In this document: positions 25,091 to 41,324 of the stretch, piece after piece
Numbering within the stretch: the first letter of the stretch is position 1
How the letters are laid out: every line of letters starts with the position of its first letter
NCBI GenBank assembly: GCA_041665345.1
Contig: JBAYJA010000002.1
Span: forward strand, 97,252-161,251
Origin: Patescibacteria group bacterium
Lineage (GTDB): Bacteria > Patescibacteriota > Patescibacteriia > PEXW01
Reading direction: 5' to 3'
Length of the DNA stretch: 64,000 bases
The notes under the pieces: model-generated
Told to the model about the DNA's origin: nothing
Seen by the model: the letters and a program-made list of their open reading frames with translations, nothing else
Database searches by the model: none
Translations under genes and position numbers: made by a program

Positions 25091-27001
25091 ATGTCCAAGA
25101 TCCTCGGTATCGACCTCGGTACAACCAACTCCTGCATGGCCATCATTGAAGGTGGTGAGCCAAAAGTTTTGGAGAACAAAGAAGGGAACCGCACCACGCC
25201 TTCTGTCGTTGCAGTATCCAAAACCGGCGAACGTCTGGTTGGCCAAGTGGCCAAGCGCCAGGCCGTTGTCAACCCAGAAAACACTCTCTATTCCATTAAG
25301 CGGCTCATTGGTCGGCACTGGAATGATGAAGAAGTCCAGCGCGACCAGAAAGTTCTGCCCTTCAAACTCAAGCAATCTGGCGATGGCGTGAAAGTGATTT
25401 TGCAAGGCAAAGAGTATGCTCCGCAGGAAATTTCAGCCATGGTTTTGCAGAAAATGAAGGAAGACGCGGAAACCAAGCTGGGTGAGAAAATCACCGAAGC
25501 AGTGATTACCGTCCCGGCCTACTTTGACGACAGTCAGCGCCAAGCCACCAAAGACGCGGGTGAAATTGCCGGCCTCAAAGTCAAGCGCATTATCAACGAG
25601 CCAACCGCAGCCGCGCTCGCCTATGGTTTCAACAAGAAGAAGGACGAGAAAATTGCAGTGTACGACCTAGGCGGCGGCACATTCGACATTTCCATTCTGG
25701 AAGTCAGCAATGACACCGTGGAAGTGAAAGCCACCAACGGGGACACCCACCTGGGCGGCGACGACTTTGACCAAATCATTATCCACTGGATAATTGACGA
25801 GTTTAAGAAAGACCAGGGGATTGACCTTGGCCAAGATCAGATGGCTTTGCAGCGCTTGAAGGAATCTGCGGAAAAAGCCAAGCACGAGCTTTCCACCACC
25901 GCGGAAACGGAAATCAACCAACCTTTCATTACCACGGACGCATCCGGCCCCAAGCACTTGGCCCTCAAACTCACCCGCGCCAAACTGGAGCAGCTGGTGG
26001 GCGATCTCGTTGAGAAAACCTTGGAACCAACCAAGAAAGCTTTGGCTGATGCCGGCCTGAAAGCCAGCGACATCAATGAAGTCATCATGGTCGGTGGTAT
26101 GACCCGCATGCCTCTGGTGCAATCCACCGTGGAAAAATTCTTTGGCAAAAAGCCGCACCTGGGTGTGAACCCAGACGAAGTGGTAGCCATCGGCGCCGCA
26201 GTTCAAGCCGGTGTGCTGCAAGGTGAAGTCCGCGACGTGCTGTTGCTGGATGTCACCCCGCTCACCCTGGGCTTAGAAACCCTGGGCGGTGTGTCCACAC
26301 CTTTGATTGACCGCAACACCACCATTCCAACCAGCAAATCCCAAGTGTTCTCCACAGCCGCGGACAACCAGACCAGCGTGGAAATTCACGTGCTGCAAGG
26401 GGAGCGACCCATGGCCAATGACAACAAGTCCCTGGGCCGGTTCATCCTCAGCGGCATTCCGCCGTCACCCCGCGGCGTGCCCCAGGTGGAAGTCACCTTT
26501 GACATTGACGCCAACGGCATCCTGAACGTGAAAGCCAAGGACAAGGCTAGCAACAAGGAGCAGAGCATTACCATCACCGCGTCGTCCGGCTTGTCCAAGG
26601 ACGAGGTGGAGAAGATGAAGCAGGAAGCGCAGGTTCACGCCGAAGAGGACAAGAAGAAGCGCGAGCTCATTGACATGCGTAACATGGCCGACAGCCTGGT
26701 CTTCACCGCGGAGAAGAGTCTCAAAGACGCGGGCGACAAAGTCCCAGCCGACGTGAAGAAGGAAATTGAGGAAAAAATGGAAGCCGTGAAAAAGGTGAAG
26801 GATGGGGATGATAAGGATGCCATCAAGAAAGCCACGGATGACCTGGGGCAGACGATACAGAAGATTGGTCAGGCGATGTATAAAGGTAGCGAGCAGGCGA
26901 GTAAGCAAGCTGGCGAGTCAGCAGGAGGGGAGAAGTCTGGCGAAGCACCCAAGGATGATAAAGGTCCGGTGGATGCGAAGTACGAGGAGGTGAAGAAGTA
27001 A
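25091..27001 (+). CDS. dnaK: Molecular chaperone DnaK (Hsp70)
   Basis: [16 protein letters not shown], the full Hsp70 signature set and a C-terminal EEVKK-like tail. 636 aa. Confidence 0.95.
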
Positions 27002-27008
27002 TTTGGTA

Positions 27009-27030
27009 GGGGCGCCGAAAGGCGCCCTTT
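27009..27030 (+). terminator. Rho-independent terminator after dnaK
   Basis: GGGGCGCC-GAAA-GGCGCCC followed by TTT. Confidence 0.5.
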
Positions 27031-27042
27031 AACACTTCATAT

Positions 27043-27615
27043 ATGATTGAATTAAAAATTACCGAAGAAGTTCGATCCTACTATTCAGAACTGCAGGGGT
27101 ATCTCTCGCAATTTCCTATTGCCAAGAGTCCAAGTGATGTAAGTGATGATTTTTCAATGGTTGAACGACTCAATGGGGTCATTGATAAATTGCAGACTTT
27201 ATGTAATGAGGATTTGAGCCGCTTCAAGGTTAGCAGCCCGCCAGGATACGATTCACAGTACTTTCTTATTTCTCAGTACCGTACATTGGTTGGTGGTTTA
27301 ATTTCTCGACTGCACGCCAAGTTTTTTTCAAATGAACCCCCACCATTTTCTGGAATGCCAAGCACAGTGAATCACTTTTCTCAAAGTCAAACACAAAACC
27401 AGTCACAAAATATGCAGCTAGTTATGGAGGTAACTGAGATAATAACAAAAAGTCTGGCCAATACTGATATTCCCCAAGATGAAAAAACGTTTTTGCAGAA
27501 GGTAAAGGAAATTTTACCAACAATCAATGGAGGATTAGACTTAGTACAGAAAGTGAGTGCAATTGCTGCACAATTAGGTATGAGCATTGAAGCGGTGAGT
27601 AGACTCCTTCGTTAG
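27043..27615 (+). CDS. Hypothetical protein (190 aa), AT-rich island, partner of the SIR2-like gene
   Basis: Markedly lower GC than the flanks. No TM and no recognisable motif. 31 nt upstream of the SIR2_2 gene on the same strand. Confidence 0.5.
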   Translation: MIELKITEEVRSYYSELQGYLSQFPIAKSPSDVSDDFSMVERLNGVIDKLQTLCNEDLSRFKVSSPPGYDSQYFLISQYRTLVGGLISRLHAKFFSNEPPPFSGMPSTVNHFSQSQTQNQSQNMQLVMEVTEIITKSLANTDIPQDEKTFLQKVKEILPTINGGLDLVQKVSAIAAQLGMSIEAVSRLLR

Positions 27616-27645
27616 TTTTTGATAAACCTCTAGAGATATAAAACC

Positions 27646-28767
27646 ATGAAGTTATTCATTTTTGGTGCGGGGGCTTCAAGAGGATCAACTAATAAGAATG
27701 TAGAGCATAATTCATTGCAGGCGCCCTTAGCTAATGAATTATTGGATGATATCTACAAATCTTATGCTGATGCTTTAGATTTAAATATTGATGTTCTAAG
27801 GGCGGATTATAAAAAGTATAAAGAGGAGGCATTACTAAATAAACAAGTGGTTAGCTTAGAAACCTGGATGACTGATTTATGGCATAAAGCACATGCGGGC
27901 GCTGGAAGTCTTACATCTGAAATCATTACATCATACAGAGGGTTTCTTGGACGGTTTGCGCATTACTTAAGGTGGATGCTCCAAGAAATTTCACAATTGA
28001 AGAGTAACTCAGAATTGTATCGTTTACTATTGATTAAACTACATGAGGAAGGTGTAAATGGTGTTGAACATGCATATGTAAATTTTAATTACGATACACT
28101 ATTTGATATTGCATATGATGATATTTGGGGGACAACGCTCTCTGACATTGATTCTTACACCTCACATCGAATTTTAAAGCCTCACGGCTCGATTAATTGG
28201 TTTGCTCAAAAGAGAGATCAAGATGGTGGAATACCTTCAAAACATGCTGATAACGATGAAAGGAATAGATATCGCGTCGCGTCGCGGAATCTCTTTAATG
28301 GGAGTCCAGTGGACCTTAAAGATCATAGGACTTATGATCCAAAGAGTACGCTATTACATAATTCCAGTTTTATTGGTAGCTCTGATTTTAAAGGGGACTA
28401 TTTTCAGCCACTAATTTTTTTGCCACTTTCGGAAAAGATGTTTGACCACATTCCTGAGTTAAGCAAAAAGATTGAAAAGGCTGCATCAGAAATACTACCA
28501 AATGTTGATCAGGTTTATTTGATTGGCTATCAGGCAAATGATAAACTGATTCATGAATGGATAAGTACATATATTAAGAAGGCGGTTCTACATGTTGTGA
28601 GTAATACAGAGGATTCATGTAATGCCTTAATGAGTAAAATGCAAGAAATGCATAAAGATGTGTTTGAAAAGGGAACGGTAACATATGATGCAAATGACAC
28701 TTCGTTTAAAAATGGCTTCTATAATTTTGTTGAGAGTTATGGTAACAAACAACAAAAAGAAACTTAG
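27646..28767 (+). CDS. SIR2_2-family (sirtuin-like) protein, candidate NAD+-depleting defence effector
   Basis: N-terminal KLFIFGAGASRGS (GAGxS Rossmann motif), VNFNYDTLFD (the (T)NYD motif) and ILKPHGSINW (HGS motif). This is the three-motif signature of the SIR2_2 family found in Thoeris ThsA, DSR and SIR2-HerA systems. The gene is AT-rich. Confidence 0.6.
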   Translation: MKLFIFGAGASRGSTNKNVEHNSLQAPLANELLDDIYKSYADALDLNIDVLRADYKKYKEEALLNKQVVSLETWMTDLWHKAHAGAGSLTSEIITSYRGFLGRFAHYLRWMLQEISQLKSNSELYRLLLIKLHEEGVNGVEHAYVNFNYDTLFDIAYDDIWGTTLSDIDSYTSHRILKPHGSINWFAQKRDQDGGIPSKHADNDERNRYRVASRNLFNGSPVDLKDHRTYDPKSTLLHNSSFIGSSDFKGDYFQPLIFLPLSEKMFDHIPELSKKIEKAASEILPNVDQVYLIGYQANDKLIHEWISTYIKKAVLHVVSNTEDSCNALMSKMQEMHKDVFEKGTVTYDANDTSFKNGFYNFVESYGNKQQKET

Positions 28768-28905
28768 AGAAAATTGGATGAAGCTTAGGAGCATGGAAAA
28801 CTACAAAAGCGTATTATTTAGGAATCGTTAGCAGATAAGGCGATTTTGTAATTTTCTTCCTCCGCCCCGCCCGCTGCGTGGGAGAAATAATGCTAGAATA
28901 GAAGC

Positions 28906-29379
28906 ATGCATAAAGACTTAAGTAAGCTTTCACGGGATATTATTGAGAGCAACCAGTATATGGTGGTTGGGACTGTTGATGCAGCCGGAAAGCCTTGGGT
29001 GTCCCCGGTGGTGTATGCATACGATAAGGAGTGGAATTTTTACTTTGTGAGTATTCCATCTTCGCGGCACGGAAAGAATATTGGCAAACAGGGGAAAGTA
29101 GCCGTTGCCATTTATGATTCACGTCAGCGTTCAGGAGAAGGGGTTGGTGTCCAACTTGATGCCGTTGCAGAGATGTTGCCACTCTCGGAGAGTGTGTCTG
29201 CAGCTAGAGTGTACTTCACCCGAAAATATCCGTACGGGAAAATTCGGCAGGTTTTCTTAATAGCGTTTAAACGGCTCATAGAACGGAAGTTGTATCGATT
29301 TTACAAAGTCACACCAAAGAAGGTGTACTTGAATGACCCAAACGCAGACACTGATGTCCGTGTGGAAGTGAAGTTATAA
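28906..29379 (+). CDS. Pyridoxamine 5'-phosphate oxidase-like FMN-binding family protein
   Basis: General-stress-26 / PNPOx-like pattern (YMVVGTVDAAGKPWVSPVVYAYD...KVAVAIYD). The GC-rich motif plus extended -10 (TGCTAGAAT) lie immediately upstream. Confidence 0.5.
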   Translation: MHKDLSKLSRDIIESNQYMVVGTVDAAGKPWVSPVVYAYDKEWNFYFVSIPSSRHGKNIGKQGKVAVAIYDSRQRSGEGVGVQLDAVAEMLPLSESVSAARVYFTRKYPYGKIRQVFLIAFKRLIERKLYRFYKVTPKKVYLNDPNADTDVRVEVKL

Positions 29380-29464
29380 AAATTCCTGAGGGTAGGTAAT
29401 GTGAAGCATTTTTTTCGCCCCGCCCCGCCCGCTGCGTGGGGAGAAAGTTTGGTATACTTGAAAT

Positions 29465-29974
29465 ATGAAAACTATCCTTACTCTTCGGCAGAAAGACGTT
29501 TACCCACGTTCTAAGGTAAAGAAGATAACGTACCATACTCGTACAGCTGCCCGCGCTATACTTTTTGATAGTCAAAACCGTATTGCCCTGGAATACGTGA
29601 GTTTACGGAACTACTACAAGTTGCCTGGCGGTGGGGTGGAAAAGGGTGAAAGTATTTTGCTTGGCCTACGTCGTGAATGTATGGAGGAAGCGGGGTGTGC
29701 CATCAAACCCGGGAAAGCCATTGGGAAAATTGTGGAGTATCGTGACCTATACAAGATTCACCAAGTTTCGTACTGCTACTTTGCAAAGGTGGTTGGGAAG
29801 AAAGGGAAGACCGCGTTCACCGGGAGTGAGAAGACAAACAAGTTTAAATTGTTATGGGTGCCGCTGGGAAAGGCAATTGCTCTCTCACGCAAAGCCAAAC
29901 CCTCGACGTACGAAAGTGGGTTTATCATCAAACGAGATTTGCAGTTCTTAGAAACGGCGAAGAGTTTGTTGTAA
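29465..29974 (+). CDS. NUDIX hydrolase
   Basis: Nudix box GGGVEKGESILLGLRRECMEEAGC. Upstream are the CGCCCCGCCCGCTGCGTGGGG motif and TGGTATACT, with the ATG only 6 nt after the -10. Confidence 0.6.
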   Translation: MKTILTLRQKDVYPRSKVKKITYHTRTAARAILFDSQNRIALEYVSLRNYYKLPGGGVEKGESILLGLRRECMEEAGCAIKPGKAIGKIVEYRDLYKIHQVSYCYFAKVVGKKGKTAFTGSEKTNKFKLLWVPLGKAIALSRKAKPSTYESGFIIKRDLQFLETAKSLL

Positions 29975-30115
29975 TACCCCGCCTCGCCCGCTGCGGCCCA
30001 CCTACGTCCACGACTTCGTCGGGACTCCGGCGCTACAGGTGGGTGTGGTACCATGGGGATATTAAAATCTATCTAAATTCTGGTAATACAATTCACTATT
30101 GCTTGAATTCACAAT

Positions 30116-30418
30116 ATGAAATCTAATACGATAAAAATAGAAAAGAAGAGGTATTTGCTCTGCCCTCAATGTCATACTTATACACGGATGAAGATGAGTA
30201 TGAATAATCCGTCGTGGTTTTTAAAACATTTTTTCATTGGTCGCTTTGCCTCAACCGTCATGGCTTCTGAAAGGAATAGTGATAAGTGGGGCGTTAATTG
30301 TAAAAAGTGTGGGAATAGAGAAGGTCTTGCAATGATGTTTCTCAAAACTGAAGTAGGTTCCAATAAAGTTGAACTAGCATATTACACGGAAGCTAATGAA
30401 AGAGTCAGCTTGATTTAA
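30116..30418 (+). CDS. Small zinc-ribbon-like protein
   Basis: CPQCHTY ... CKKCGN. AT-rich. Confidence 0.35.
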   Translation: MKSNTIKIEKKRYLLCPQCHTYTRMKMSMNNPSWFLKHFFIGRFASTVMASERNSDKWGVNCKKCGNREGLAMMFLKTEVGSNKVELAYYTEANERVSLI

Positions 30419-30501
30419 GTACTCCCCCCGCCCCGCCCGCTGCGAGCAGGGGAGTAAGAAAAGACCCGGCCAAAGTGGTCGGGTCATGCGTGCGTTTATG
30501 T

Positions 30502-30945
30502 TTACTTGCCAAACGACACATCGAGGAGCGCGTTGTGCAGGTCCGGATTGTTACACGTGATAAAATCAATTTTGTGTAAACTGTTTGGATACTTCTGCAG
30601 GAATGTCTGCCGGCCTTCCATCATTTTAACTGCAGTCTTTTTCGCAACTGCTTTTTTCCTGAAGGTGCGTTTTCCAACATGGACAATTCTGAGTGATGCT
30701 TCCTGGAATCGGCTGGAAGAAGCTGCTTGGAGACAGTGAATGACAATGGTGGGAAGCTTCTCAATTTCACTGTCCGTCACAAAGGTTGCGTGCATTATTT
30801 TGTCACCGTCATTCTTCTGACGACCAATGACAATAACTGAATGCTGCATATCCAAGGATTGTTGTGCATTGAGTGTGTCATCAGTTACACGCTGAAGAAG
30901 AAACTCTGTGAGTTTCTCATCACCGAAAATAATTCCTAATTCCAT
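30502..30945 (-). CDS. Hypothetical protein (147 aa)
   Basis: Minus-strand ORF with a terminator hairpin (rc of 30455-30485) followed by a T-run. No recognisable domain. Confidence 0.4.
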   Translation of the reverse strand: MELGIIFGDEKLTEFLLQRVTDDTLNAQQSLDMQHSVIVIGRQKNDGDKIMHATFVTDSEIEKLPTIVIHCLQAASSSRFQEASLRIVHVGKRTFRKKAVAKKTAVKMMEGRQTFLQKYPNSLHKIDFITCNNPDLHNALLDVSFGK

Positions 30946-31037
30946 ATTTGTAAAGACCTCCGTTTTGTTTTATATTCTTTAATTGAATACTGTAGATCAT
31001 AACCAACTTTCTGTCAACCCGCCCCGCCCCGCCGTAG

Positions 31038-31577
31038 GTGTATACTTCCCCTATGCCATACGATGATATAGCAAAGGTGCTGGATATACAGTTCAGTGGG
31101 AGCCCTGAGATAGTAGCCAAATTCAGGGAGCGCTTAGAAGAAGGGAAATGGACCCGTGACGAGAATCCGCAGTCGCATTTTTGCGCCTACTTTTTGCCAT
31201 ACAATCCAGAGACTAAAGAGGTGTTCATTGTGCACCACAAAAAGTCAGGACTGTGGATTGCCCCAGGTGGCCACATTGATGAGGGCGAAACACTCTTCCA
31301 GACGCTCAACCGTGAGATTGAAGAAGAGCTTGGCGTCAAGCAGTTTTTTTCTTCCAGCCAAATGCCTTTCCTGCTGACCATTACGCCAATTGAGATGCAG
31401 ACCCATCCGTGCAAAATGCATTATGATATTTGGTATCTTGTGCAGACAAATGGTAAAAATTTTCAGATTGACCCCAAGGAATTTTTGGCTACCAAGTGGT
31501 TGAGCATAGAAGCTGCCAGAAAGTACGTCACCGATCCGCCAAATCTCAAAGCTCTAGAAATGATTGAGCAATCCTAA
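31038..31577 (+). CDS. NUDIX hydrolase
   Basis: Nudix box GGHIDEGETLFQTLNREIEEELGV. Upstream GC-rich motif plus GGTGTATACT extended -10. Apparently leaderless. Confidence 0.6.
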   Translation: MYTSPMPYDDIAKVLDIQFSGSPEIVAKFRERLEEGKWTRDENPQSHFCAYFLPYNPETKEVFIVHHKKSGLWIAPGGHIDEGETLFQTLNREIEEELGVKQFFSSSQMPFLLTITPIEMQTHPCKMHYDIWYLVQTNGKNFQIDPKEFLATKWLSIEAARKYVTDPPNLKALEMIEQS

Positions 31578-31667
31578 CCTCGCCCCGCCCGCTGCGTGGG
31601 GGGATACGTAACTTTATATAGTTATGCCATTTGACAAACTTTATAAAGTTTGTTATTCTGGGTGTAT

Positions 31668-32585
31668 ATGACCATTCAGCAGAAATTACAGACCATTCAG
31701 GCCCTTACCGGCAAAACGCAGGAAACACTTGCCAAGGTGCTGGGCGTAAGCTTTCCGGCATTCAACGCCTGGTCTACCGGCAAGGCGCAGCCACGACCAA
31801 GTGCGCTCGCTCGCATTAACGCGCTGTACGTACACGTTGGCGGTAGAATGACGCCTCAGGCTTCTGGCCTGGAGGCGAAGAAGCTGACTATCCAACACCT
31901 TTCCCGCAAGCACCCAAACGTGCTGAAGAAGATTTTGGCACGCAAAGACTTGCACGATTCATTCATGTTGGCATTAACATTTCATACAAACCGTATTGAA
32001 GGTAGCACGGTGACCGAAGATGAAACTGCAGCAATTTTGTTTGACCACCAGGTCTTACGGAATCGCACTTTGGTGGAGCAGCAGGAGGTAAAAAATCACC
32101 AAGCCGCCTTAGACTATCTGCTGCACCATTTGCAGAGTGGGAAGCGTATTGATGAAGTTCTCATTTTGCGTTTGCATGGTATTTTGCTCAATGCCATTCA
32201 GACTGATGCGGGGTCATATCGTCAACATGCAGTCCGGATTGTTGGCGCAAACGTGCCTACGGCGAATTATTTGAAAGTGCCGGTGCTTATGAAGTCTTTG
32301 GCTTCTGGGTTAGAAAAGAAAGTGGCAGATAGTATTTCTGCCACTGCTGACGTCCACGCGCGCTTTGAACAGGTCCATCCTTTTGCCGATGGTAATGGAC
32401 GCATTGGGCGTTTGCTGATTACTGCAATGCTGTTGCGGGCGAACATTGCTCCCGCAATCATTGAGCAGCGTCAACGTCGCACCTACATGCGTAGTCTAAA
32501 TGTTGCCCAAACGACATCGGATAGCATCCCATTGCAGGAGTTTCTCAGTGATGCGGTATTGAAAGGGTACGCGCTACTTGTGTAG
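31668..32585 (+). CDS. Fic / Doc family protein with N-terminal HTH
   Basis: Fic motif HPFADGNGRIGR. N-terminal XRE-like HTH (TQETLAKVLGVSFPAFNAWSTGKAQP). Confidence 0.75.
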   Translation: MTIQQKLQTIQALTGKTQETLAKVLGVSFPAFNAWSTGKAQPRPSALARINALYVHVGGRMTPQASGLEAKKLTIQHLSRKHPNVLKKILARKDLHDSFMLALTFHTNRIEGSTVTEDETAAILFDHQVLRNRTLVEQQEVKNHQAALDYLLHHLQSGKRIDEVLILRLHGILLNAIQTDAGSYRQHAVRIVGANVPTANYLKVPVLMKSLASGLEKKVADSISATADVHARFEQVHPFADGNGRIGRLLITAMLLRANIAPAIIEQRQRRTYMRSLNVAQTTSDSIPLQEFLSDAVLKGYALLV

Positions 32586-32730
32586 TTTCGTATAGTTTTT
32601 TTTGTAGTCAACCCCCCCCACCTACGCAATAGCTACGGTGGGCAGGCGCCCCGCCCGCTGCGTGGGGTTGCAATTATTTTTATCTTTGCCTATAGTGCGT
32701 TGATAACGCTCTTTCCATGTGGAGGTTTCC

Positions 32731-33153
32731 ATGCCTGAAGATGAGAAGCCGAGCAGCTTGCCAGGGAACGAGAGGTACATCGTTGATTTTCTCTACGTCC
32801 AGAAGGGTTGGTTCTCCTGTTTAGGACCAATTCGGAAGTATCGTCTCCTTGGTGATGTTCTGGGTTTTCGAAAGGGACAGATAGTAGATGATCAAGAATT
32901 GCAACACGCATGTGTCGCTGCTTTACAGGCACGGCCAAGAAAGGCTCCAGGACATTCTGACAGCAATGATACTGATTACGAGCTTCCCACAGTGACGTGC
33001 CCACGTTGTGGAGCAGAAGTGTATCGGCTGATTGCATGTCATTGGTGTGAAAACAGCATTTGCACGCACTGTTGCTATGAAGATGAACTGTACGGAAAGT
33101 TCTGTGATGAGAGCTGCTATAGCGGCCGTTGGAATTCTGATAATTACGATTAA
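32731..33153 (+). CDS. Cys-rich zinc-finger-like protein
   Basis: CPRCGAEVYRLIACHWCENSICTHCCYEDELYGKFCDESCYSGRW. GGAGG RBS before the ATG at 32731. Confidence 0.45.
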   Translation: MPEDEKPSSLPGNERYIVDFLYVQKGWFSCLGPIRKYRLLGDVLGFRKGQIVDDQELQHACVAALQARPRKAPGHSDSNDTDYELPTVTCPRCGAEVYRLIACHWCENSICTHCCYEDELYGKFCDESCYSGRWNSDNYD

Positions 33154-33271
33154 AGACTAGGCAATGCTTAGTCTTTTTTTCTTTAAATTTTTCAAGAAAC
33201 TGACATACCTTGGCACGGGGAAATAAGAAAAGACCCATCTGGTGAAGATGGGCTTTTCAAAGGGCATCCAA

Positions 33272-33658
33272 TTACACCCTCGATCTTTTCAATTGGTATA
33301 ATTTTAGGGCAAAATGCAGGAGGGCGGTTCCAAGATACGCAGTCAATACCCATTTTGTTGCATCTGATATTCCCCAGATAAGGATGTGAGTGAACGTCAC
33401 GGCAAGGGCAAGGTTCATGAGTGTGCAGGTTGCAAACGGTAGTGCGGCAAATGTTCTGGTTGTAAAGTAACGCGTTTGACGCAGCTCTCTCACGGCGAAT
33501 CCGAGCATGAACCCAGACACGATGAGGAAGAAACAAGCCACTGCGAGCATTGCCCAATGGTCTTGCATGGGCGGAGTAAAGTATCGCTTGCACCCCAGAA
33601 CCCCGGCGAGCCCAGCAGCAATGGAAAAAAGAAAGAAAATACGAGTCGAGTCTTTCAA
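33272..33658 (-). CDS. Membrane protein (128 aa, 4 TM)
   Basis: Hydrophobic ORF. A terminator hairpin with GAAAAGACCCATCTGGTG..ATGGGCTTTTC lies downstream at 33225-33260. Confidence 0.45.
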   Translation of the reverse strand: MKDSTRIFFLFSIAAGLAGVLGCKRYFTPPMQDHWAMLAVACFFLIVSGFMLGFAVRELRQTRYFTTRTFAALPFATCTLMNLALAVTFTHILIWGISDATKWVLTAYLGTALLHFALKLYQLKRSRV

Positions 33659-33804
33659 TTGGTAACCTCCAATGTAAAAATTTTTATGTTCCCAATAACC
33701 TATATCGTTAGAGTTGTTTTGTCAACCCCCGCCAGCTGTGATTCGGGATAAGAAAAGACCCATCTGGTGAGGATGGGCTTTTCAAAGAGAGTGTTGTGTT
33801 TGGG

Positions 33805-34224
33805 TTAAACCTTGGGTTGCGGATTGGCCTTGAGCGCTTTTTCCTTTGCTTGAAACGCAGCGAGTGCTCCTTCACCACCTTTTTTCGTGATAGCGTCGTG
33901 CAAGTGCTGAGTTGTCCAATCACCGTAGGTGACCATTCCGCAGATGTGATTCATCCGGAGGTGGTAGAGCGCACCTGGGAAAACCCCGCAGGGAATATCA
34001 TTCAGACGGATGAATTCATCTACACCCTCGCTCATCGGACAAGCCGAGCAGATGAGCTTGTCGTAGAGATCCTGGTAGAACACGCGTTTGCATTTGTCAT
34101 ACCAGTCAAAGTAGTAGGTCTTCCCTTCAGGTGCCGGCGGACGTTCTTGGCCATTTTCTACTTTTGGCATCTGGGTGGGCAGGATGACATTGAATTTTTC
34201 CGCGACTTCCAGCGCGAGTTTCAT
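33805..34224 (-). CDS. Hypothetical Cys/His-rich protein (139 aa)
   Basis: ATG overlaps the stop of an upstream 54-aa ORF (ATGA). A terminator-like repeat lies downstream (33750-33785). Confidence 0.4.
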   Translation of the reverse strand: MKLALEVAEKFNVILPTQMPKVENGQERPPAPEGKTYYFDWYDKCKRVFYQDLYDKLICSACPMSEGVDEFIRLNDIPCGVFPGALYHLRMNHICGMVTYGDWTTQHLHDAITKKGGEGALAAFQAKEKALKANPQPKV

Positions 34225-34385
34225 GGAGAGCTCGTCGGCTTCACATACCTGGCCATGATGCTTCCGTCTTTGTCCTCGATACGCCCATGACTCATGTCAT
34301 GCCGTGTATGCCAGGAAAAACCACCCAGCGACTCTATTGCTTGCCAGTACTCCAGCTCTGTTTCGGGCTGTTTTTCAAGCTTCAT
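34221..34385 (-). CDS. Small ORF (54 aa), translationally coupled to 33805-34224, or an N-terminal fragment of a frameshifted gene
   Basis: GGAGGA RBS 4 nt before the ATG at 34385. The stop TGA overlaps the downstream ATG. Confidence 0.3.
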   Translation of the reverse strand: MKLEKQPETELEYWQAIESLGGFSWHTRHDMSHGRIEDKDGSIMARYVKPTSSP

Positions 34386-34512
34386 TGTATCCTCCTTAGT
34401 TATTTCAAGTTTCTATTTCGTAGTAGTTTTTCAGATAATGTAATAACTGTCAACCCCCCACCTACGCAGCAGCTATGGTGGGCAGGCGCCCCGCCCGCTG
34501 TAGCGTCCCTTC

Positions 34513-34675
34513 TGTCATTGCGAGCTCCAGCAGGAGCGTGGCAATCCCGATGAACTTCGGAACCAGGCTTGTACAATAGCCTGGCTCTTGATACAACGGG
34601 ATTGCCCGCCTGCATCGCCTCTGCGATTTCGGCGGGCAGGCCGCGTCACTCGATGACTCGTTCCTCGCAATGACA
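34513..34675. mobile_element. MITE-like element, family B (TGTCATTGCGAG ... CTCGCAATGACA)
   Basis: Terminal inverted repeats with internal sub-palindromes (GTGGCAATCCCG / CGGGCAGGCCGCG). The right inverted repeat overlaps the ATG of the GIY-YIG gene. An inverted copy lies at 61426-61539 and a half copy at 43819-43873. Confidence 0.5.
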
Positions 34676-34987
34676 AATGAAAACGTGCAAGAACGGTATT
34701 ACTATGTCTACATCATGACCAACGAGCGCAACACGACGCTCTACACTGGCGTGACCAATGATTTGCCCCGGCGGGTCATGGAGCATAAGGAGAAGACATT
34801 TCCCAAAAGCTTCAGTGCCAAGTACAACCTGACCAAGCTGGTGTACTACGAAGCTGGTGAAGATATCAGCGGCGCCATTGAACGGGAGAAGCAAATAAAA
34901 TCCTGGTCGCGAAAGAAGAAGGAGGAAGTCATCACCAGCGTCAATCCCACGTGGAAGGATTTGACTGCAGAGCTACTTGAGGGATAA
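34670..34987 (+). CDS. GIY-YIG nuclease superfamily protein (UPF0213-like)
   Basis: YYYVYIMTNERNTTLYTGVTNDLPRRVMEHKEK is the canonical GIY-YIG N-terminal motif. 105 aa. Confidence 0.7.
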   Translation: MTNENVQERYYYVYIMTNERNTTLYTGVTNDLPRRVMEHKEKTFPKSFSAKYNLTKLVYYEAGEDISGAIEREKQIKSWSRKKKEEVITSVNPTWKDLTAELLEG

Positions 34988-35486
34988 GGAAAGACCAAGA
35001 AACTGGGGGACTTTTACGGTCCCCATGCGTTTACATTTCTTGTAATAAAAAACACCCGGCTAGGAAAACCTTTAAGGAGGTTCTCAGAGCCGGGGTGGCA
35101 CGACAGGAGTCGCGGAAGTCAAAAGAACGATAGTTCTCATTTACTATTGTATCAGCTTCGTGGAAATATGCAAATCGGATGATTTTTGGGTAGCTGCTAA
35201 ATTGCTTTGATTAACGGAGGTAATAGTTTTGTAAATAAAAGACCGGGTTTCACGAATGAAACCCGGGGTGATACTGCTCTTGCAATCCAGCCAGAACCAA
35301 CTAGTGAATGGGAATGATGCTCAAGTGAACCTGAGTCTCGCTACCTCACCAAGGTGAGGGTCTCGGCAAAAACTTCTCAACGGTTCAGGGATACAAAACC
35401 CCATTCAAATGCGGAAACTATTACTGGTGAAAGGAGCAGCATTAAATATTTTGATAAACCGAGACTAACTTACTCCTGGGCAACTG

Positions 35487-35837
35487 TCAAGGTGCAAGCT
35501 TGTCGGTCAGGACAGGCGGATATAGAGGTTGGGATATTGCCCCGCTTTCAACTTCCGCAAGTATCACGGTATACCCCAGTGCTTGCAGGGCGAGCAAGAA
35601 CGCAGTTACCTTCCGTGGCGGTTTATTGCTAATCATTTGCGCAAGTAAACGGAAGGCGGTTCGTTTTGACATTTTGCCACGTACTTGCAGTTCGTTGGCA
35701 ATATCCGCAACCGCGCCAAACTTTTGAGCTCTTTTATTGTCGATGACTGTCCTGAACTGCTGCAGGAGCTCTGGCAGGGGCTGCGTTAAATCAAGCGGTT
35801 GCAATACCGTGGGTTGGACAATTTGTGTTTCTTCCAT
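35487..35837 (-). CDS. Hypothetical protein (116 aa)
   Basis: Minus-strand ORF. No recognisable domain. Confidence 0.35.
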   Translation of the reverse strand: MEETQIVQPTVLQPLDLTQPLPELLQQFRTVIDNKRAQKFGAVADIANELQVRGKMSKRTAFRLLAQMISNKPPRKVTAFLLALQALGYTVILAEVESGAISQPLYPPVLTDKLAP

Positions 35838-35986
35838 TTTTCTCTCCAGGTGAACAATTTTCCTCTAGTGTAGGCTTGGTGTGAAGATTGTCAAGCTTCC
35901 GTGTGGCAAATATTCACTTGACGAAGTTGCACGAACGTTCTACAGTGGTGGGAAAATAAGCACTTTAAAAATTGGAGGAAATGTAT

Positions 35987-36514
35987 ATGTTCTCAGAAAG
36001 TATTCCTGATGAGGAGCGTCAGCGATTACAAGAAATTCCAAAATTCTTCATTATAACTGCGCTCATTGGGGCAGCGCTGACGGCTTACGCATTGCATCAT
36101 TTCCCCGCAATACTTCAAGCTTCACTCCTAGATCGTTTGCTCATGCTGTGCCTCCTAAGTTCATCGACGCTATTTGTCAGTGCCAATGGATGTTTGGTTG
36201 AGTATAGACGAACTCTTATACATTTAGCCATTTTCGTTGGTGTGAATCTCTCAGTGTATTTTGGATGCCGTGCATACTTTATTTCCCCGGAGGAATTGAG
36301 CACCTTCTTTGTCCTCCTGTACTCAGGAATTGCAATTGTACTGGCAAGTTTACTCACGCAATCAAGCGTCATGCGGATCACGACGAGAGACGGTTCATAC
36401 GCCAAAATGTTCAAGCAGCATATCATGCCACGGGTGCGAAGATTACTGTTTCGTTCCTTTATGATGGCGGTTGGACTTCAGATTGCGGTTTACCTATACT
36501 TTGCAATTTTGTAA
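35987..36514 (+). CDS. Membrane protein
   Basis: GGAGGA RBS 7 nt before the ATG at 35987. Multiple TM helices. Confidence 0.45.
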   Translation: MFSESIPDEERQRLQEIPKFFIITALIGAALTAYALHHFPAILQASLLDRLLMLCLLSSSTLFVSANGCLVEYRRTLIHLAIFVGVNLSVYFGCRAYFISPEELSTFFVLLYSGIAIVLASLLTQSSVMRITTRDGSYAKMFKQHIMPRVRRLLFRSFMMAVGLQIAVYLYFAIL

Positions 36515-36620
36515 ACAAACGAGAGTAGTCGTCCTCAAGTTTTTTGTTTGACATTGGCAGCAGATATGCTAAAAAACGAATATAACCAAAAACCACAAAA
36601 GATGAGAAAGGAGATGAAAG

Positions 36621-37025
36621 ATGAGAAGATCATTACTCACGGATCCAGGCAATTGGTGGCACGATGATTACCAACGGTACCCAATTCTGGCGTATGCTGC
36701 TCTCTGCCTGCTGATTCTCTGGCTAAAACTCAGTAACGCATTCCCCATGAGTTGGGAACAGGGGCTACTACCCCTCATTGCTGTGGGTATAGTGACCATC
36801 CTCTACTACATTGGCAAGGGGTTGAATCACACTATCCCAGACGCGGTGCTGTGCCTAGGTATGCGCTGGCGTCAACTGGCGCCCGGAAATACCATGATCA
36901 CACAATCGGCCAATGGGCTACGGGTTGCACTCACAAACCTTAGTTGGTCGGTAACGCCCTTCAAGGCATACGGTCAGAAAATGACCGAAAGTCGCAGTCG
37001 GCAAGGTTTCTGGTTAAAACCATAG
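36621..37025 (+). CDS. Membrane protein (134 aa)
   Basis: AGGAGATGAAAGATG context. Hydrophobic N-terminal half. Confidence 0.4.
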   Translation: MRRSLLTDPGNWWHDDYQRYPILAYAALCLLILWLKLSNAFPMSWEQGLLPLIAVGIVTILYYIGKGLNHTIPDAVLCLGMRWRQLAPGNTMITQSANGLRVALTNLSWSVTPFKAYGQKMTESRSRQGFWLKP

Positions 37026-37108
37026 TACGTATTTTTTTTGAGGCTGTCGCACGACGGCCTCTTTTCTATTATACTCATTCCATCTATCCACCAACTATTT
37101 TCTCATAT

Positions 37109-37381
37109 ATGCAACTCAAAGATTTTATTACCTACACGCTCACCAGCATTGCCCAAGGCGTGGATGAGGCAAATAAGTACACGGGTCAGCAGTTCCAAAT
37201 TGTGCGGACGGGCAAAGAATCCTACGTGGATTTTGACGTGGCCGTCACCTCCACCAAAGAGAAGAAGGGGAAAGCGGGGATTGTGGTGTGGGTGGTGGGT
37301 GCCGGCGGTGAACGAAACCGCAAGACCCAACAGGTGAGTAGGATTAAGTTCAAGGTGAATTATCGGGGGAAGAAGCTGTAA
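37109..37381 (+). CDS. Small hypothetical protein (about 90 aa)
   Basis: ATG at 37109 downstream of a terminator hairpin (37040-37063) and a TATACT -10. No RBS, possibly leaderless. Confidence 0.3.
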   Translation: MQLKDFITYTLTSIAQGVDEANKYTGQQFQIVRTGKESYVDFDVAVTSTKEKKGKAGIVVWVVGAGGERNRKTQQVSRIKFKVNYRGKKL

Positions 37382-37535
37382 AGGCGTAGAGAATTTTTAC
37401 AAACCAGAGCGCCCTCTCCAGGGCGCGATGCATGTTTTTGGTGCACGGTATCGGTTGTGTGTTATATGTTGTTTGTTGGTTGTTGATAAAAAAGACCCAC
37501 CTGGTTTGGGTGGGTCTGGCCTGCTTTACGTTATA

Positions 37536-37781
37536 CTACCTTACACAAAGCCAATAGTTCACCGCATCGTATGATGGCCGCCGTAGGAGGAGAGTGGTCT
37601 GCTGTCCCTTTTTGATAAAGGTGTCTGGACCGCTGTCACGGACATCGATGGTCATTTTCAGGACCTCAGCATGGGTGAATTGTCGCGTTGGATCATCCAC
37701 GCAGTGCAAGTGCATCGTGTTTACGCGAATTTCAATTGCTTGAATAGTACTTGATAAGAAAAGGACTTCATTTGTGGACAC
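37536..37781 (-). CDS. Small protein (81 aa), paralog of 37914-38162
   Basis: Shares the ...DAVN(Y/D)WL C-terminal motif with its neighbour. Followed by a strong intrinsic terminator (GACCCACCC..GGTGGGTC then T6). Confidence 0.45.
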   Translation of the reverse strand: MSTNEVLFLSSTIQAIEIRVNTMHLHCVDDPTRQFTHAEVLKMTIDVRDSGPDTFIKKGQQTTLLLRRPSYDAVNYWLCVR

Positions 37782-37913
37782 AGTACCTCCTGGTTTTTTT
37801 TGTGTTCAGCAGAGTGTAGCATTAGGTTGCAAACCGTCAAGCGCACATAAAAAAGACCCACCCTCCTCCGCCACTGCTTTGGAGGGCAGGCCAGGTAAGG
37901 GTGGGTTTGATAC

Positions 37914-38162
37914 TTACACTTTTCCTTTTAACCAGTCATTGACTGCATCGGCGGTTTCCTTGCAAAGGCTAAGAGAGTCAATACCATTGCGTTGCAAAAG
38001 CATGTCACGGCCAGTCGAGTTCACGGTAATCTTCATTTTCCGCACTTCCTCGATGAGTCCTTTCCATTCTGTATGGTGGGCGGTAATCAGTATTATGTGT
38101 TTTGGAAACACACTGACCGAAAGAATTGTCGCAATGGAAAAAAGTGAATCTGGTTTTTTCAC
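37914..38162 (-). CDS. Small protein (82 aa), tandem paralog
   Basis: Part of a tandemly duplicated unit of about 380 bp (gene plus conserved upstream block TGTTCAGCAGAGTGTAGCATT... plus terminator). Confidence 0.45.
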   Translation of the reverse strand: MKKPDSLFSIATILSVSVFPKHIILITAHHTEWKGLIEEVRKMKITVNSTGRDMLLQRNGIDSLSLCKETADAVNDWLKGKV

Positions 38163-38323
38163 ACGGTTCCTCCTTGGTTTTGGTGTTCAGCAGAGTGTAG
38201 CATTCGGCTACTAGCCGTCAAGGCGTGTAAAAAAAGACCCACCCTCCTTCGCTGCTGCTTTGGAGGGCAGGTCGAGGAGTGGTGAGTCTTTATAATGTGC
38301 TTCACGAGCACGTGACGCTACTT

Positions 38324-38575
38324 TCAGCCGGGCCATTCGTTGGCCCAGGCGGAGAGGAGCTTGGTGGTGTCGTAGGTCAGATGAAAGGTGCACCTTGATC
38401 CTTCTTCAACCACACGCTCATTCTCATTGGTTGTGTGAATGCTGACCATATTCGAACATTGACCAACAGAAAGTTCGAATTCGCGGCCATCTGTGCACTG
38501 AATGGTTACAGTGTCTTTCCCGGGAGCGATGTTGAGTACAGGGTGTTCTTTTTTTCTAACGTCCGTGTCAGCCAT
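38324..38575 (-). CDS. Small hypothetical protein (83 aa)
   Basis: ORF with a terminator downstream (38225-38290) and the same conserved upstream block. Confidence 0.4.
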   Translation of the reverse strand: MADTDVRKKEHPVLNIAPGKDTVTIQCTDGREFELSVGQCSNMVSIHTTNENERVVEEGSRCTFHLTYDTTKLLSAWANEWPG

Positions 38576-38698
38576 GGTTCCTCCACTTGATTTTTATGTG
38601 GTCTTTTTGTATAATCTGCTTTCGTCTCCCTATCCTACGTCGCCGGTTTCGCAGCGTCAATATGCTACACTGGCAGTAGGTGTAACCCCCTTTTTCCT

Positions 38699-38989
38699 AT
38701 GAACCAAGCCCAACAATTGCAAATAAAAATTGATGACATCACCATGAAAGGTGTGTACGCCAACATGATGAGCATTGCCCACACCAAGGAAGAATTTGTT
38801 TTGGATTTCCTGCACATTGCGGCAGCGCAGCAGCAGGGCATTGCCGTGGCGCGGGTGGTTGTTTCCCCTGGGCACGCCAAGCGCATTTTGAGCGCCATCA
38901 AGGAAAACCTGGAAAAGTACGAAGCGGCTTTTGGGAAAATTGAAGCCGCCAAGGAGCCAACCTCTGGTGGGGTTGGGTTCCAGGCGTAA
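38699..38989 (+). CDS. DUF3467-like small protein
   Basis: KGVYANMMSIAHTKEEFVLDF pattern, reminiscent of the DUF3467 family. 96 aa. Confidence 0.4.
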   Translation: MNQAQQLQIKIDDITMKGVYANMMSIAHTKEEFVLDFLHIAAAQQQGIAVARVVVSPGHAKRILSAIKENLEKYEAAFGKIEAAKEPTSGGVGFQA

Positions 38990-39006
38990 CCTACATTTGG
39001 AGTAGT

Positions 39007-40194
39007 ATGGCCACCCCCTCCTCACTCGCGCAAAAAATGACCAAATCCACAGCACCAACACCAAGTCCACTGACGTGGAAATTTGTGGTTATGGGTGTGG
39101 TGCCGGTGGTGAGTAGCGTGCTGTTGTGGTGGACGCTGCACATAGCGTTGCTTGGACCCAATGACGCGCTGACCACGGTTGAGCGCCTGATGCAGTACAG
39201 CGTGAGTTTGATTTTTTTCTGTATTACCCTGGCCTTGTTTGGCGTCTTTGCTATGGCCGCTGGCCGTCGGCGCTGGTGGGCTTCGCTCGTTTCCGGTGCG
39301 CTGAGTTCCATCACCTTGCTCCCATTCTTCCCGTGGCGCTGGGCAACCTTGGCTGCTGCGCTCATTACCTTGTGTGGGTATGCACTGTGGTCATGGAACG
39401 TGGCTGGGGATGTGGCCATCCGGCGGAAGTTCCAACCACATTACACCATCCATGCCGGATTTGGCACAGGGTTGATTCTCCTCCTGGTGGGAGTGTCGAT
39501 GTGCTACTATACTTCGTTGGGTCAAAAAGATGCTTCTGCTGCGACATTCCGGGAAAATTTGATTAGCTCTGGTCGTGAGGGAATTGATTCTGTGCTGGCG
39601 AATCAAGTGGAGGGGTACCGGGGAGAAATGACCTTGGATGAATTTTTGGGTTTGGTGGCAACGGATAAGCTTGGGGAATTTGTCCTCCCTCAGGTGACGG
39701 AGACATTGGACAATGACCGAGCCAAGCAGGAAGCGTACAGGAAATTGCAGACTGAATTGCGGAAGCTGAACCCTAGTTTGCCAGCCACGCAGACAAATGC
39801 AATGGGCGCTGAGCTGGACAAGCAACTGGAAGCTGAACGGCAAGCGCTGTTGCAGGCAACGTTGGCTAAACTCAGTGATGTGCAGCGGCAACTCTTAGAT
39901 GAAGCACGCCATGAATTTGTGCAAACTTTTCGCATTCAGGCTGCCGGTACGGAAACGATGGACGCGGTCATTGATAAAATTCTCTTACGAAATATTTCCA
40001 CCTACGTGGATCCGTACGAAGATTTCTTGCCACCGTTGCTTGCGCTCTCTTTCTTCTTTGTCATTGAGCTGATTAGTATTATCTACCGGTATATCATTTT
40101 TGCTTTGGCGCCGCTCATTGCCTGGGTGTACCAGAAAATGGGTGCCCTGCGCTTGCGGGTGGTTCAGGCAGATGTTGAGGAAGTGGTGGTGTAG
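39007..40194 (+). CDS. Polytopic membrane protein (395 aa)
   Basis: N-terminal helices, a central coiled-coil-like region and a C-terminal TM. Ends 6 nt before dnaJ. Confidence 0.5.
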
Positions 40195-40199
40195 CGCGT

Positions 40200-41324
40200 A
40201 TGGAAAAAGACTACTACTCCATTCTTGGGATTTCTCGCTCCGCGAGTGCGGATGAGGTGAAGAAAGCCTTTCGGAAGAAAGCGCACGAATTTCACCCTGA
40301 CAAATCCCACGGTGACGAGGCAAAGTTTAAGGAAGTGAATGAGGCGTACCAGGTTTTGTCGAACCAGGAAAAGCGCCAGCAGTATGACCAGTACGGCCAA
40401 ACCTTTGACGATGCTCGCCGGCAGGGTGGTGGCCCTGGTGCGGGTGCTGGGTTTGGCGGTTTTGGTGGATTTGGCCAGGGCGGGTTCCAAGGCAACGTGG
40501 ATATGGGCGACCTGGGAGATATGTTTGGTGACCTATTTGGCTTTGGGGGTGGGCGGAGTCGTCGCAGCACCCGGCAACGTGGTGGTGCAGATATCCAGGC
40601 AGACATCCAGCTCACTTTCCGGGAGGCATCGTTTGGCGTGGAAAAGCAATTTGAACTATTGAAAGAAGTTGTGTGCGATCACTGCAAAGGTAACGGGGCA
40701 GAACCTGGTGCCAAGGTAGAAACGTGCAGTACGTGCAAGGGTCAAGGTCAGGTGCAGCGCGTGGTGAATTCCATGTTCGGCCAAATGGCGCAGACTGTCG
40801 TTTGTCCAACTTGCGAAGGGCAAGGGAGTGTCCCAACCCAGAAGTGTCGGACGTGTGGGGGTGATGGCCGAGTCCGTCGTGAAACCATGATCAAAGTTTC
40901 GGTCCCGGCTGGGATTGATGACGGTGAGCGCATACGCCTCACTGGTCAAGGGGAGGCAGGTGAACGTGGGGCAGCGGCAGGGGATTTGTACCTCCGTATT
41001 CGGGTAACACCGGATGCACGGTACGAACGGGATGGGGCAAACGTGGTTTCCACCGCCCACATTACTTTTTCCCAGGCAGCACTTGGAGCGAAAGTCGACG
41101 TCGAAACTTTGGATGGCGCAGTGGTCATGAAAATTCCCTCAGGAACCCAGAGCGGCAAAGTGTTCCGCTTGAAAGACAAAGGCATTCCGCATCTGCGCAA
41201 ACGCGGCCGGGGGGATCACCTGGTCACCGTTGTCGTTGACGTGCCCACGAAGTTATCCGGTAAACGCAAAGCACTACTGAAACAACTTGCAGAAATTGAG
41301 GGGAGTGAGGTAGAGGAGGGGTAG
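40200..41324 (+). CDS. dnaJ: Molecular chaperone DnaJ
   Basis: J-domain with HPD (DYYSILGI...FHPDK), a G/F-rich region and four CxxCxGxG zinc-finger repeats. Confidence 0.9.

Follow-up and report, generated by a model that had tools for sequence, protein, structure and literature searches.

In a survey by Bonhomme et al. (bioRxiv 10.1101/2024.09.18.613514) every known anti-phage SIR2 protein falls in the SIRim branch, which differs from the classical sirtuins by having at least seven strands and no Zn-binding cysteine tetrad. In SIR2-HerA (Nezha; SIR2 structures PDB 8w9l, 8yhx, 8j4u and 8sub) the SIR2 subunit requires HerA for its activation. Residues N163, D165 and H212 of PsSIR2 are putatively catalytic, mutation of SIR2 catalytic residues results in loss of the protection against phage T7, and a small domain (residues 53-130) auto-inhibits the NADase (PMC11472057). 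Thoeris ThsA, DSR1/DSR2, SIR2-APAZ/pAgo (SPARSA) and Avs5 carry or are paired with a sensor (SLOG/Macro, a large C-terminal domain, APAZ plus pAgo, and STAND, respectively). A stand-alone form has been described as well: AbiH is a sirtuin-like abortive-infection protein of ~350 amino acids (aa) (PMC13064643; bioRxiv 10.1101/2024.09.18.613514, where it is listed as sirim). Among eukaryotic proteins, FAM118B is a stand-alone SIRim that is activated by filament formation. The present analysis concerns a gene, denoted B, in a stretch of 64,000 nucleotides (nt) from a Patescibacteria group bacterium (assembly GCA_041665345.1, contig JBAYJA010000002.1), which is referred to as the window. Gene B (27646-28767, + strand) is an intact open reading frame (ORF) of 373 aa for a predicted NAD+ glycohydrolase with a stand-alone SIR2 fold of the SIRim type. 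It is preceded on the same strand by gene A (27043-27615), an intact ORF of 190 aa; proteins identical to both are recorded as hypothetical proteins of Patescibacteria group bacterium. An original prediction, based on the nucleotide sequence, gave the exact coordinates of both ORFs behind dnaK and considered them a candidate two-gene defence module, of a composition consistent with horizontal acquisition. The reading that is preferred here, with a fair degree of confidence, is that A and B are two independent accessory genes that are adjacent by chance beside dnaK, at the edge of a variable region, and that B is a probable NAD+-depleting defence enzyme.

Fold and NAD site of protein B

The match to the Pfam model SIR2_2 (PF13289) that the original prediction expected was found, but at 20.7 bits (E 4.7e-4, residues 143-185 only) it stays under the gathering score of 24.5. 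The same model matched 24 of 32 members of the B family at E ≤ 0.01 (best 6.8e-7). PADLOC, which had also been proposed as a check, did recognize B, though weakly (E 1e-7) and with generic SIR2 models only; Aga_SIR2 gave weak matches in just three of the 32 members. NCBIfam and PHROGs contained no match for B. A direct search of the B sequence against the PDB sequences returned nothing relevant, and the B-family profile found there a single marginal match, to PsSIR2 (E 0.023). Because the Pfam match is weak, the assignment of B to SIR2 is based on the structure model and the conserved residues and not on the hidden Markov model.

The motifs GAGAS, NFNYD and KPHGS, which had been noticed in this order, are present as family-invariant motifs in the alignment of 32 members. 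The first belongs to the glycine-rich NAD-binding loop after strand 1 (F6-G7-A8-G9-A10-S11, codons at 27661-27678, + strand as for all codons given below), which is invariant throughout. The second is N146-F-N148-Y-D150 (28081-28095) and the third K178-P-H180-G-S182 (28177-28191). A fourth motif, G294-Y-Q-A-N-D299 (28525-28542), corresponds to the GYxxxD motif of SIR2_2-type proteins. Invariant positions in the alignment are F6-G-A-G-A-S11, F147-N148-Y-D150, K178-x-H180-G-S182-x-N-W and G294-Y295..D299; G7, G9, S11, N148, D150 and H180 are thus identical in all 32 sequences. In the profile alignment of B with PsSIR2 (8w9l), the counterparts of N148, D150 and H180 are N163, D165 and H212.

An AlphaFold2 model, calculated with the family alignment, consists of one globular domain with a Rossmann sheet of eight strands (predicted local distance difference test (pLDDT) 91.9, predicted template modelling score 0.91). 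In a Foldseek comparison of this model with the PDB all 24 matches at E ≤ 1e-3 were to SIR2 subunits from SIR2-HerA, the best with E 1.7e-7; sirtuins came next. FAM118B/SIRanc was a far weaker structural match than the bacterial SIR2-HerA protein. After strand 1 the model has an all-helical insertion (residues 35-137, codons at 27748-28056) with helices at 35-42, 48-64, 71-82, 91-116 and 119-137 according to DSSP. This insertion corresponds to what is called the small domain or the variable loop in SIR2 proteins, and a helical small domain at this place is common to B and PsSIR2. Protein B has one cysteine and its family members have 0-6. As no cysteine column is conserved, the zinc tetrad or module of the protein-deacylating sirtuins is absent from B. 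From this absence and the presence of more than six strands it follows that B is to be placed in the SIRim branch. No SLOG, Macro, APAZ or STAND domain and no long C-terminal sensor was detected in B. The earlier statements that B has a SIR2_2-type NAD fold, that it lacks SLOG or another sensor domain and that it is shorter than the DSR proteins therefore agree with a model of one SIR2 fold of 373 aa and with the intact NAD-site residues. As modelled, B is a divergent SIR2/SIRim-fold enzyme with an intact Asn148/Asp150/His180 NAD site.

Among the known systems, SIR2-HerA has the SIR2 whose fold is closest to that modelled for B. B is likewise in the range of 360-400 aa and it has the same catalytic Asn, Asp and His, yet the identity is only ~15% and the profile barely detects the relationship. 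B also fails the defining feature of this system: no HerA ATPase lies beside it in the window or was found in the gene tables and Pfam scans of the other B-family loci, and the sole weak DUF87 match in the window is a type IV secretion system coupling protein 27 kb away. As the closest solved structures are all HerA-associated, B could be regarded as an orphaned, decaying and non-functional remnant of a SIR2-HerA-type system that has lost HerA. However, ~79 clusters of the family keep the full length and the catalytic and NAD-site residues, which points to long-term purifying selection without HerA, and none of the members examined has a HerA neighbour. It is therefore very improbable that B is a remnant.

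By architecture, B is nearest to AbiH and also near to stand-alone SIRim proteins such as FAM118B. AbiH (Lactococcus, PF14253) and B each consist in the main of a single SIR2/SIRim-like domain, in a protein of ~350 aa that is encoded by a single gene without a partner. They come from different phyla, and the model PF14253 matched none of the 32 B-family members at E ≤ 0.01 nor B itself at E ≤ 0.1; the relatedness demonstrated for the two is that of a shared superfamily. The existence of AbiH (PMC13064643; bioRxiv 10.1101/2024.09.18.613514) also means that a short stand-alone SIR2 is not the unknown architecture that the original prediction had supposed. Unlike the systems with a sensor, B has none and none is nearby: no Pfam match to SLOG or to TIR, the domain of the Thoeris partner ThsB, was present in B or its neighbours, the whole of its 373 aa being one SIR2 fold, and no APAZ domain or short pAgo neighbour was found at B or at the loci of its family. 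DSR1 and DSR2 reach ~1000 aa and owe this size to a large sensor region at the C terminus, in contrast to the 337-378 aa of the B family. B is best filed as a new, unannotated family within a known kind, i.e. the stand-alone SIRim NADase effectors, centred on the candidate phyla radiation (CPR), and not as a new two-gene system.

Genes A and B downstream of dnaK

Upstream of A and B the order of genes is hrcA (22657), grpE (23371), hsp20 (23968), a small ORF and dnaK (25091-27001, + strand). The ORF of A opens 41 nt past the dnaK stop codon. Directly 3' of this stop a GC-rich, terminator-like stem-loop with a short U tract, GGGGCGCC-GAAA-GGCGCCCU (27009-27030, + strand), has a folding energy of -22.2 kcal/mol (z -5.2 against shuffles) and ends 13 nt ahead of the ATG of A. 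A and B are separated by 30 nt, in which a scan for sigma-70 promoters and terminators, itself uninformative, found no terminator-like site. The genes dnaK and dnaJ (40200-41324, + strand; Pfam DnaJ, DnaJ_C and DnaJ_CXXCXGXG) are usually adjacent. Here they are split by a variable stretch of 13 kb (27002-40199), of which they form the left and right anchors. It contains A, B, a PNPOx-like protein, two NUDIX hydrolases, a zinc-ribbon protein, a helix-turn-helix (HTH)-Fic protein, a GIY-YIG protein and many small unknown ORFs. A and B are the dnaK-proximal edge of this stretch.

The proposed pairing of A and B was not seen at any other locus. The scan covered 23 other loci with a true B-family gene (species-representative genomes and exact-protein look-ups, ~5-6 kb around the gene) and 85 other loci with an A-family gene (80 metagenomic and five from look-ups, at least 42 with at least 1.2 kb of downstream sequence). 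The A profile found no A-family gene in the former (0/23) and the B profile found no B-family gene in the latter (0/85). Relatives that have A or B after dnaK share the hrcA-grpE-hsp20-dnaK context. In one of them (locus L008) dnaK, ~90% identical by tblastx, is followed by A (70%), an unrelated membrane-like ORF and an IS30-type element, and in another (L070) the 3' end of dnaK is followed by A (about 50-55%); both are without B. In L001/L009, dnaK (~84%; the HSP70 gene, PF00012, of L001) is directly followed by B (54%), without A. L001 has the same dnaK-dnaJ frame as the window, with a different and shorter filling. These relatives speak against the module.

Gene A itself belongs to a family that is far larger than that of B. 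The statement that it has no recognizable domain holds for Pfam, NCBIfam, PHROGs and PADLOC, which all gave no match. At a clustering level of 50% identity, the matches of an exhaustive profile search came to 499 representatives, of which 214 had E ≤ 1e-30; almost without exception they have 180-195 aa and lack fusions. The alignment, with a mean column identity of 53%, shows an N-terminal YSELQGYLSQxP motif and a near-invariant EPxPFSGMPST motif that adjoins a Q-rich linker. The PFSGMPST motif region (residues 101-111; 27343-27375, + strand), next to this disordered linker, is retained in hundreds of clusters and resembles a short linear motif to which a partner would dock. In the AlphaFold2 model of A (pLDDT 87.7) two helical domains (1-95 and 113-190) are connected by a linker (105-116) with a pLDDT below 50; Foldseek found no significant match for it in the PDB (best E 0.86). 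The family has no conserved neighbour in the loci examined, and its genes are often found within restriction-modification or defence islands or in mobile regions. In L156 (1-9358), a clear defence island, the A gene lies 35 nt after a complete Type I restriction-modification operon (hsdR-hsdS-hsdM); behind it come genes for an unknown protein of 147 aa, an Mrr-type nuclease and an endonuclease of the BglII type. The A gene is flanked by a methyltransferase-S fusion and GmrSD in L107, comes after Mrr in L111 and lies beside an integrase or transposase in L155 and L120. In L074 (4621-6447), and likewise in L075, 111 nt separate it from a downstream gene for a TIR_2-domain protein of 392 aa; apart from this arrangement and that of the window, no A gene was seen to adjoin an NADase-type effector.

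The absence of co-occurrence, the relatives with A or B alone, the lack of a conserved neighbour and the unequal family sizes indicate that A and B are independent. A is a neighbour from a separate, widespread family, neither required by nor specific to B. A lineage-specific two-component system, with A as the small protein (regulator, antitoxin or sensor) that would control the NADase B, could be argued from the common strand, the 30-nt spacer without a terminator and the AT-richness of both genes, and from two other loci. One is L074, with its TIR-domain protein as another NADase-type effector. The other is L154, which contains the closest B homologue (68%) and where, in the place of A, a small gene for a 117-aa protein lies 35 nt upstream. 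Its product is weakly like residues 13-65 of the N-terminal domain of A (hhalign probability 34% over 48 columns, HMMER 8 bits). This protein is an orphan without homologues, so that the likeness stays at this faint level. In view of the zero counts at 23 B loci and 85 A loci, the same-position relatives that hold one gene without the other, the many monocistronic B genes and the mutually unrelated upstream genes of other B members, such a system is improbable. A broader version, in which the A family would be a modular defence component, a sensor or adaptor with the PFSGMP motif that pairs with varied effectors (B, the TIR protein of L074, restriction enzymes) and forms a lineage-specific two-component NADase immune system with B in the window, is slightly less probable still. 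Close adjacency in a single genome was no proof of a module.

The base composition of both genes sets them apart from their surroundings. The GC content is 0.393 for A and 0.357 for B, compared with 0.543 for dnaK, 0.454 for the PNPOx gene and a window mean of 0.490 (standard deviation 0.039 in 1.1-kb windows), and no other 1.1-kb stretch of the window has as low a GC content as B. At 17 of 19 loci the AT content of B exceeded that of its flanks, with a mean difference of 8.9 points and regardless of the GC content of the host; for A this was so at 34 of 38 loci (5.3 points). Low GC is a family trait of both, and the pattern fits mobile accessory genes. The foreign composition that had been noted relative to dnaK and PNPOx thus stands, but the insertion derived from it was too simple. 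Each of the two genes is also found at this spot in relatives that have already diverged (identities of about 84-90% for dnaK, 50-70% for A and 54% for B), so that a recent insertion of both can be discarded. The window contains no tRNA and no Rfam family, and no direct repeats flank A and B. IMG/VR scans with both family profiles gave zero viral copies, which leaves a phage origin or an anti-defence role for A or B without support.

Distribution and possible function of B

Among 5.8 billion proteins the B family comprises 79 clusters (90% identity) of 337-378 aa. Its members, at 30-35% identity, have lost neither length nor any of the catalytic and NAD-site residues. The distribution of the family is rare and patchy: it occurs in Levy-, Woyke-, Roizman-, Gottesman-, Kerfeld-, Peri- and Saccharibacteria, mostly in Patescibacteria, and in a handful of GTDB species representatives. 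No conserved partner emerged when the genes on either side of B were clustered by BLAST, for 18-22 loci of the family and 41 of more distant relatives. Many B genes are monocistronic between genes on the opposite strand. The upstream genes of other members are mutually unrelated, and Pfam assigned unrelated domains, or none, to those that are tightly linked. One member (L150, 2830-6501) lies 14 nt after a gene for a 718-aa KAP-family NTPase and 2 nt before one for a 156-aa unknown, which may be a different, local multi-gene grouping; MerR and HTH genes and a serine recombinase (resolvase) are also near. More distant full-length relatives in other phyla adjoin HsdR or an AAA_13 ATPase.

In at least two diverged genomes B directly follows the hrcA-grpE-hsp20-dnaK cluster, the neighbours of the family are mostly ordinary, and the window encodes, 0.7-2.3 kb past B, NUDIX hydrolases, whose substrates are products of the ADP-ribose type. 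All this would agree with a non-immune function. B would then be a housekeeping or stress-related NAD-dependent enzyme (a protein ADP-ribosyltransferase, a protein deacylase or an enzyme of NAD turnover), perhaps linked to the heat-shock operon. Against this stand the rarity and patchiness of the family, its AT-richness relative to the hosts, the lack of a conserved context and the absence of the Zn- and substrate-binding module used by protein-modifying sirtuins. Moreover, the linkage to dnaK is limited to one small clade. A non-immune role is therefore considered unlikely, but less so than the two-component systems discussed above.

A defence role for B is plausible, and on the conserved sequence features and the fold it is rather likely that B is a defence NADase, probably an anti-phage suicide effector. 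In such a scheme B would be an NAD+ glycohydrolase that is held off by the helical insertion 35-137. This insertion is the natural candidate for the switch, i.e. a regulatory or sensor region or a surface that binds the trigger. Phage infection would switch B on through a phage product, through self-assembly or through both; self-assembly as an alternative route would resemble FAM118B filaments or SIR2 rings. Active B would then deplete NAD+ and abort the infection, as do the SIR2 of SIR2-HerA, ThsA, DSR2 and probably AbiH, but in this case without HerA, SLOG or another partner.

Several points weigh against this reading and against A and B being independent. It is on homology that B is assigned the roles of an NADase and a defence protein, and the sequence likeness to characterized SIR2 defence proteins is marginal, as is evident from the sub-threshold Pfam match, the E-value of 0.023 for the PDB profile match and the generic nature of the PADLOC models. 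The 90 neighbour proteins in 18 B-family loci are mostly products of ordinary genes without clear defence enrichment. Besides, with 30 nt between them on the same strand A and B may be co-transcribed or have a lineage-specific functional link, and the likeness of the L154 orphan to A points in the same direction.

Surroundings of the locus and possible meaning for CPR defence

Downstream of B a GC-rich motif, CCGCCCCGCCCGCTGCGTGGG, recurs on the + strand between 28862 and 32666 (also within 34454-34500), with one copy in each intergenic spacer among the genes for PNPOx, NUDIX, the Zn-ribbon protein, a 147-aa protein, NUDIX, HTH-Fic and a 144-aa protein. Five copies are present at ≤ 3 mismatches, where zero are expected, and the core CGCCCGCTGCG has six exact copies. 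A repeat of 47 nt at 32614-32660 recurs at 34454-34500 (94%). The motif was not found in the rest of the window or in the 154 loci scanned, relatives included, and its folding is no better than that of shuffles. It looks like a recombination site of a cassette array or a shared operator. In comparison with 27620-32900 of the window, the block of B and the motif-separated small genes is absent from L008 (5463-7360), which has an IS30-type element (rve and HTH_38) instead; the similarity between the two returns weakly at ~32917 and at the GIY-YIG gene (34685-34966). The block includes the HTH-Fic protein (31650-32585; Fic E 4.9e-16) and, just downstream of B, the NUDIX hydrolases (29465-29974 and 31038-31577). 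Defence by a single Fic-domain gene is known from SoFic, and a protein of this kind, like NUDIX enzymes that process ADP-ribose, could be of functional relevance to an NADase such as B.

At L154 (3-545) a fragment of a trypsin-like protease with a GNSGGP motif has a C-terminal tail identical to that of DnaK in the window, which may be a recombination scar at the 3' end of dnaK or an assembly chimera. In the small-ORF region upstream of dnaJ a segment of ~110 nt is repeated (37797-37906 and 38178-38287, spacing 381 nt, 83-87% identity), with AAAAAAGACCCACC-type terminator-like ends.

Patescibacteria, or CPR bacteria, have tiny genomes and few recognized defence systems. In the literature no publication was found that deals with defence systems of Patescibacteria together with SIR2. 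Standard tools miss B, given a sub-threshold match in Pfam, none in NCBIfam and a weak, generic SIR2 match in PADLOC. The A family of ~500 clusters is a large uncharacterized resident of restriction-modification and defence islands and merits a look of its own. B is unsurprising in kind, but it is useful for the thin defence catalogue of the CPR and as a minimal SIR2 effector. If the preferred reading of B is true, it would be a compact model for the sensing of infection by a SIR2 effector that has no HerA, SLOG, pAgo or STAND module, and a CPR-centred, partner-less SIR2 NADase family would add a single-protein NAD-depletion system to the CPR repertoire.

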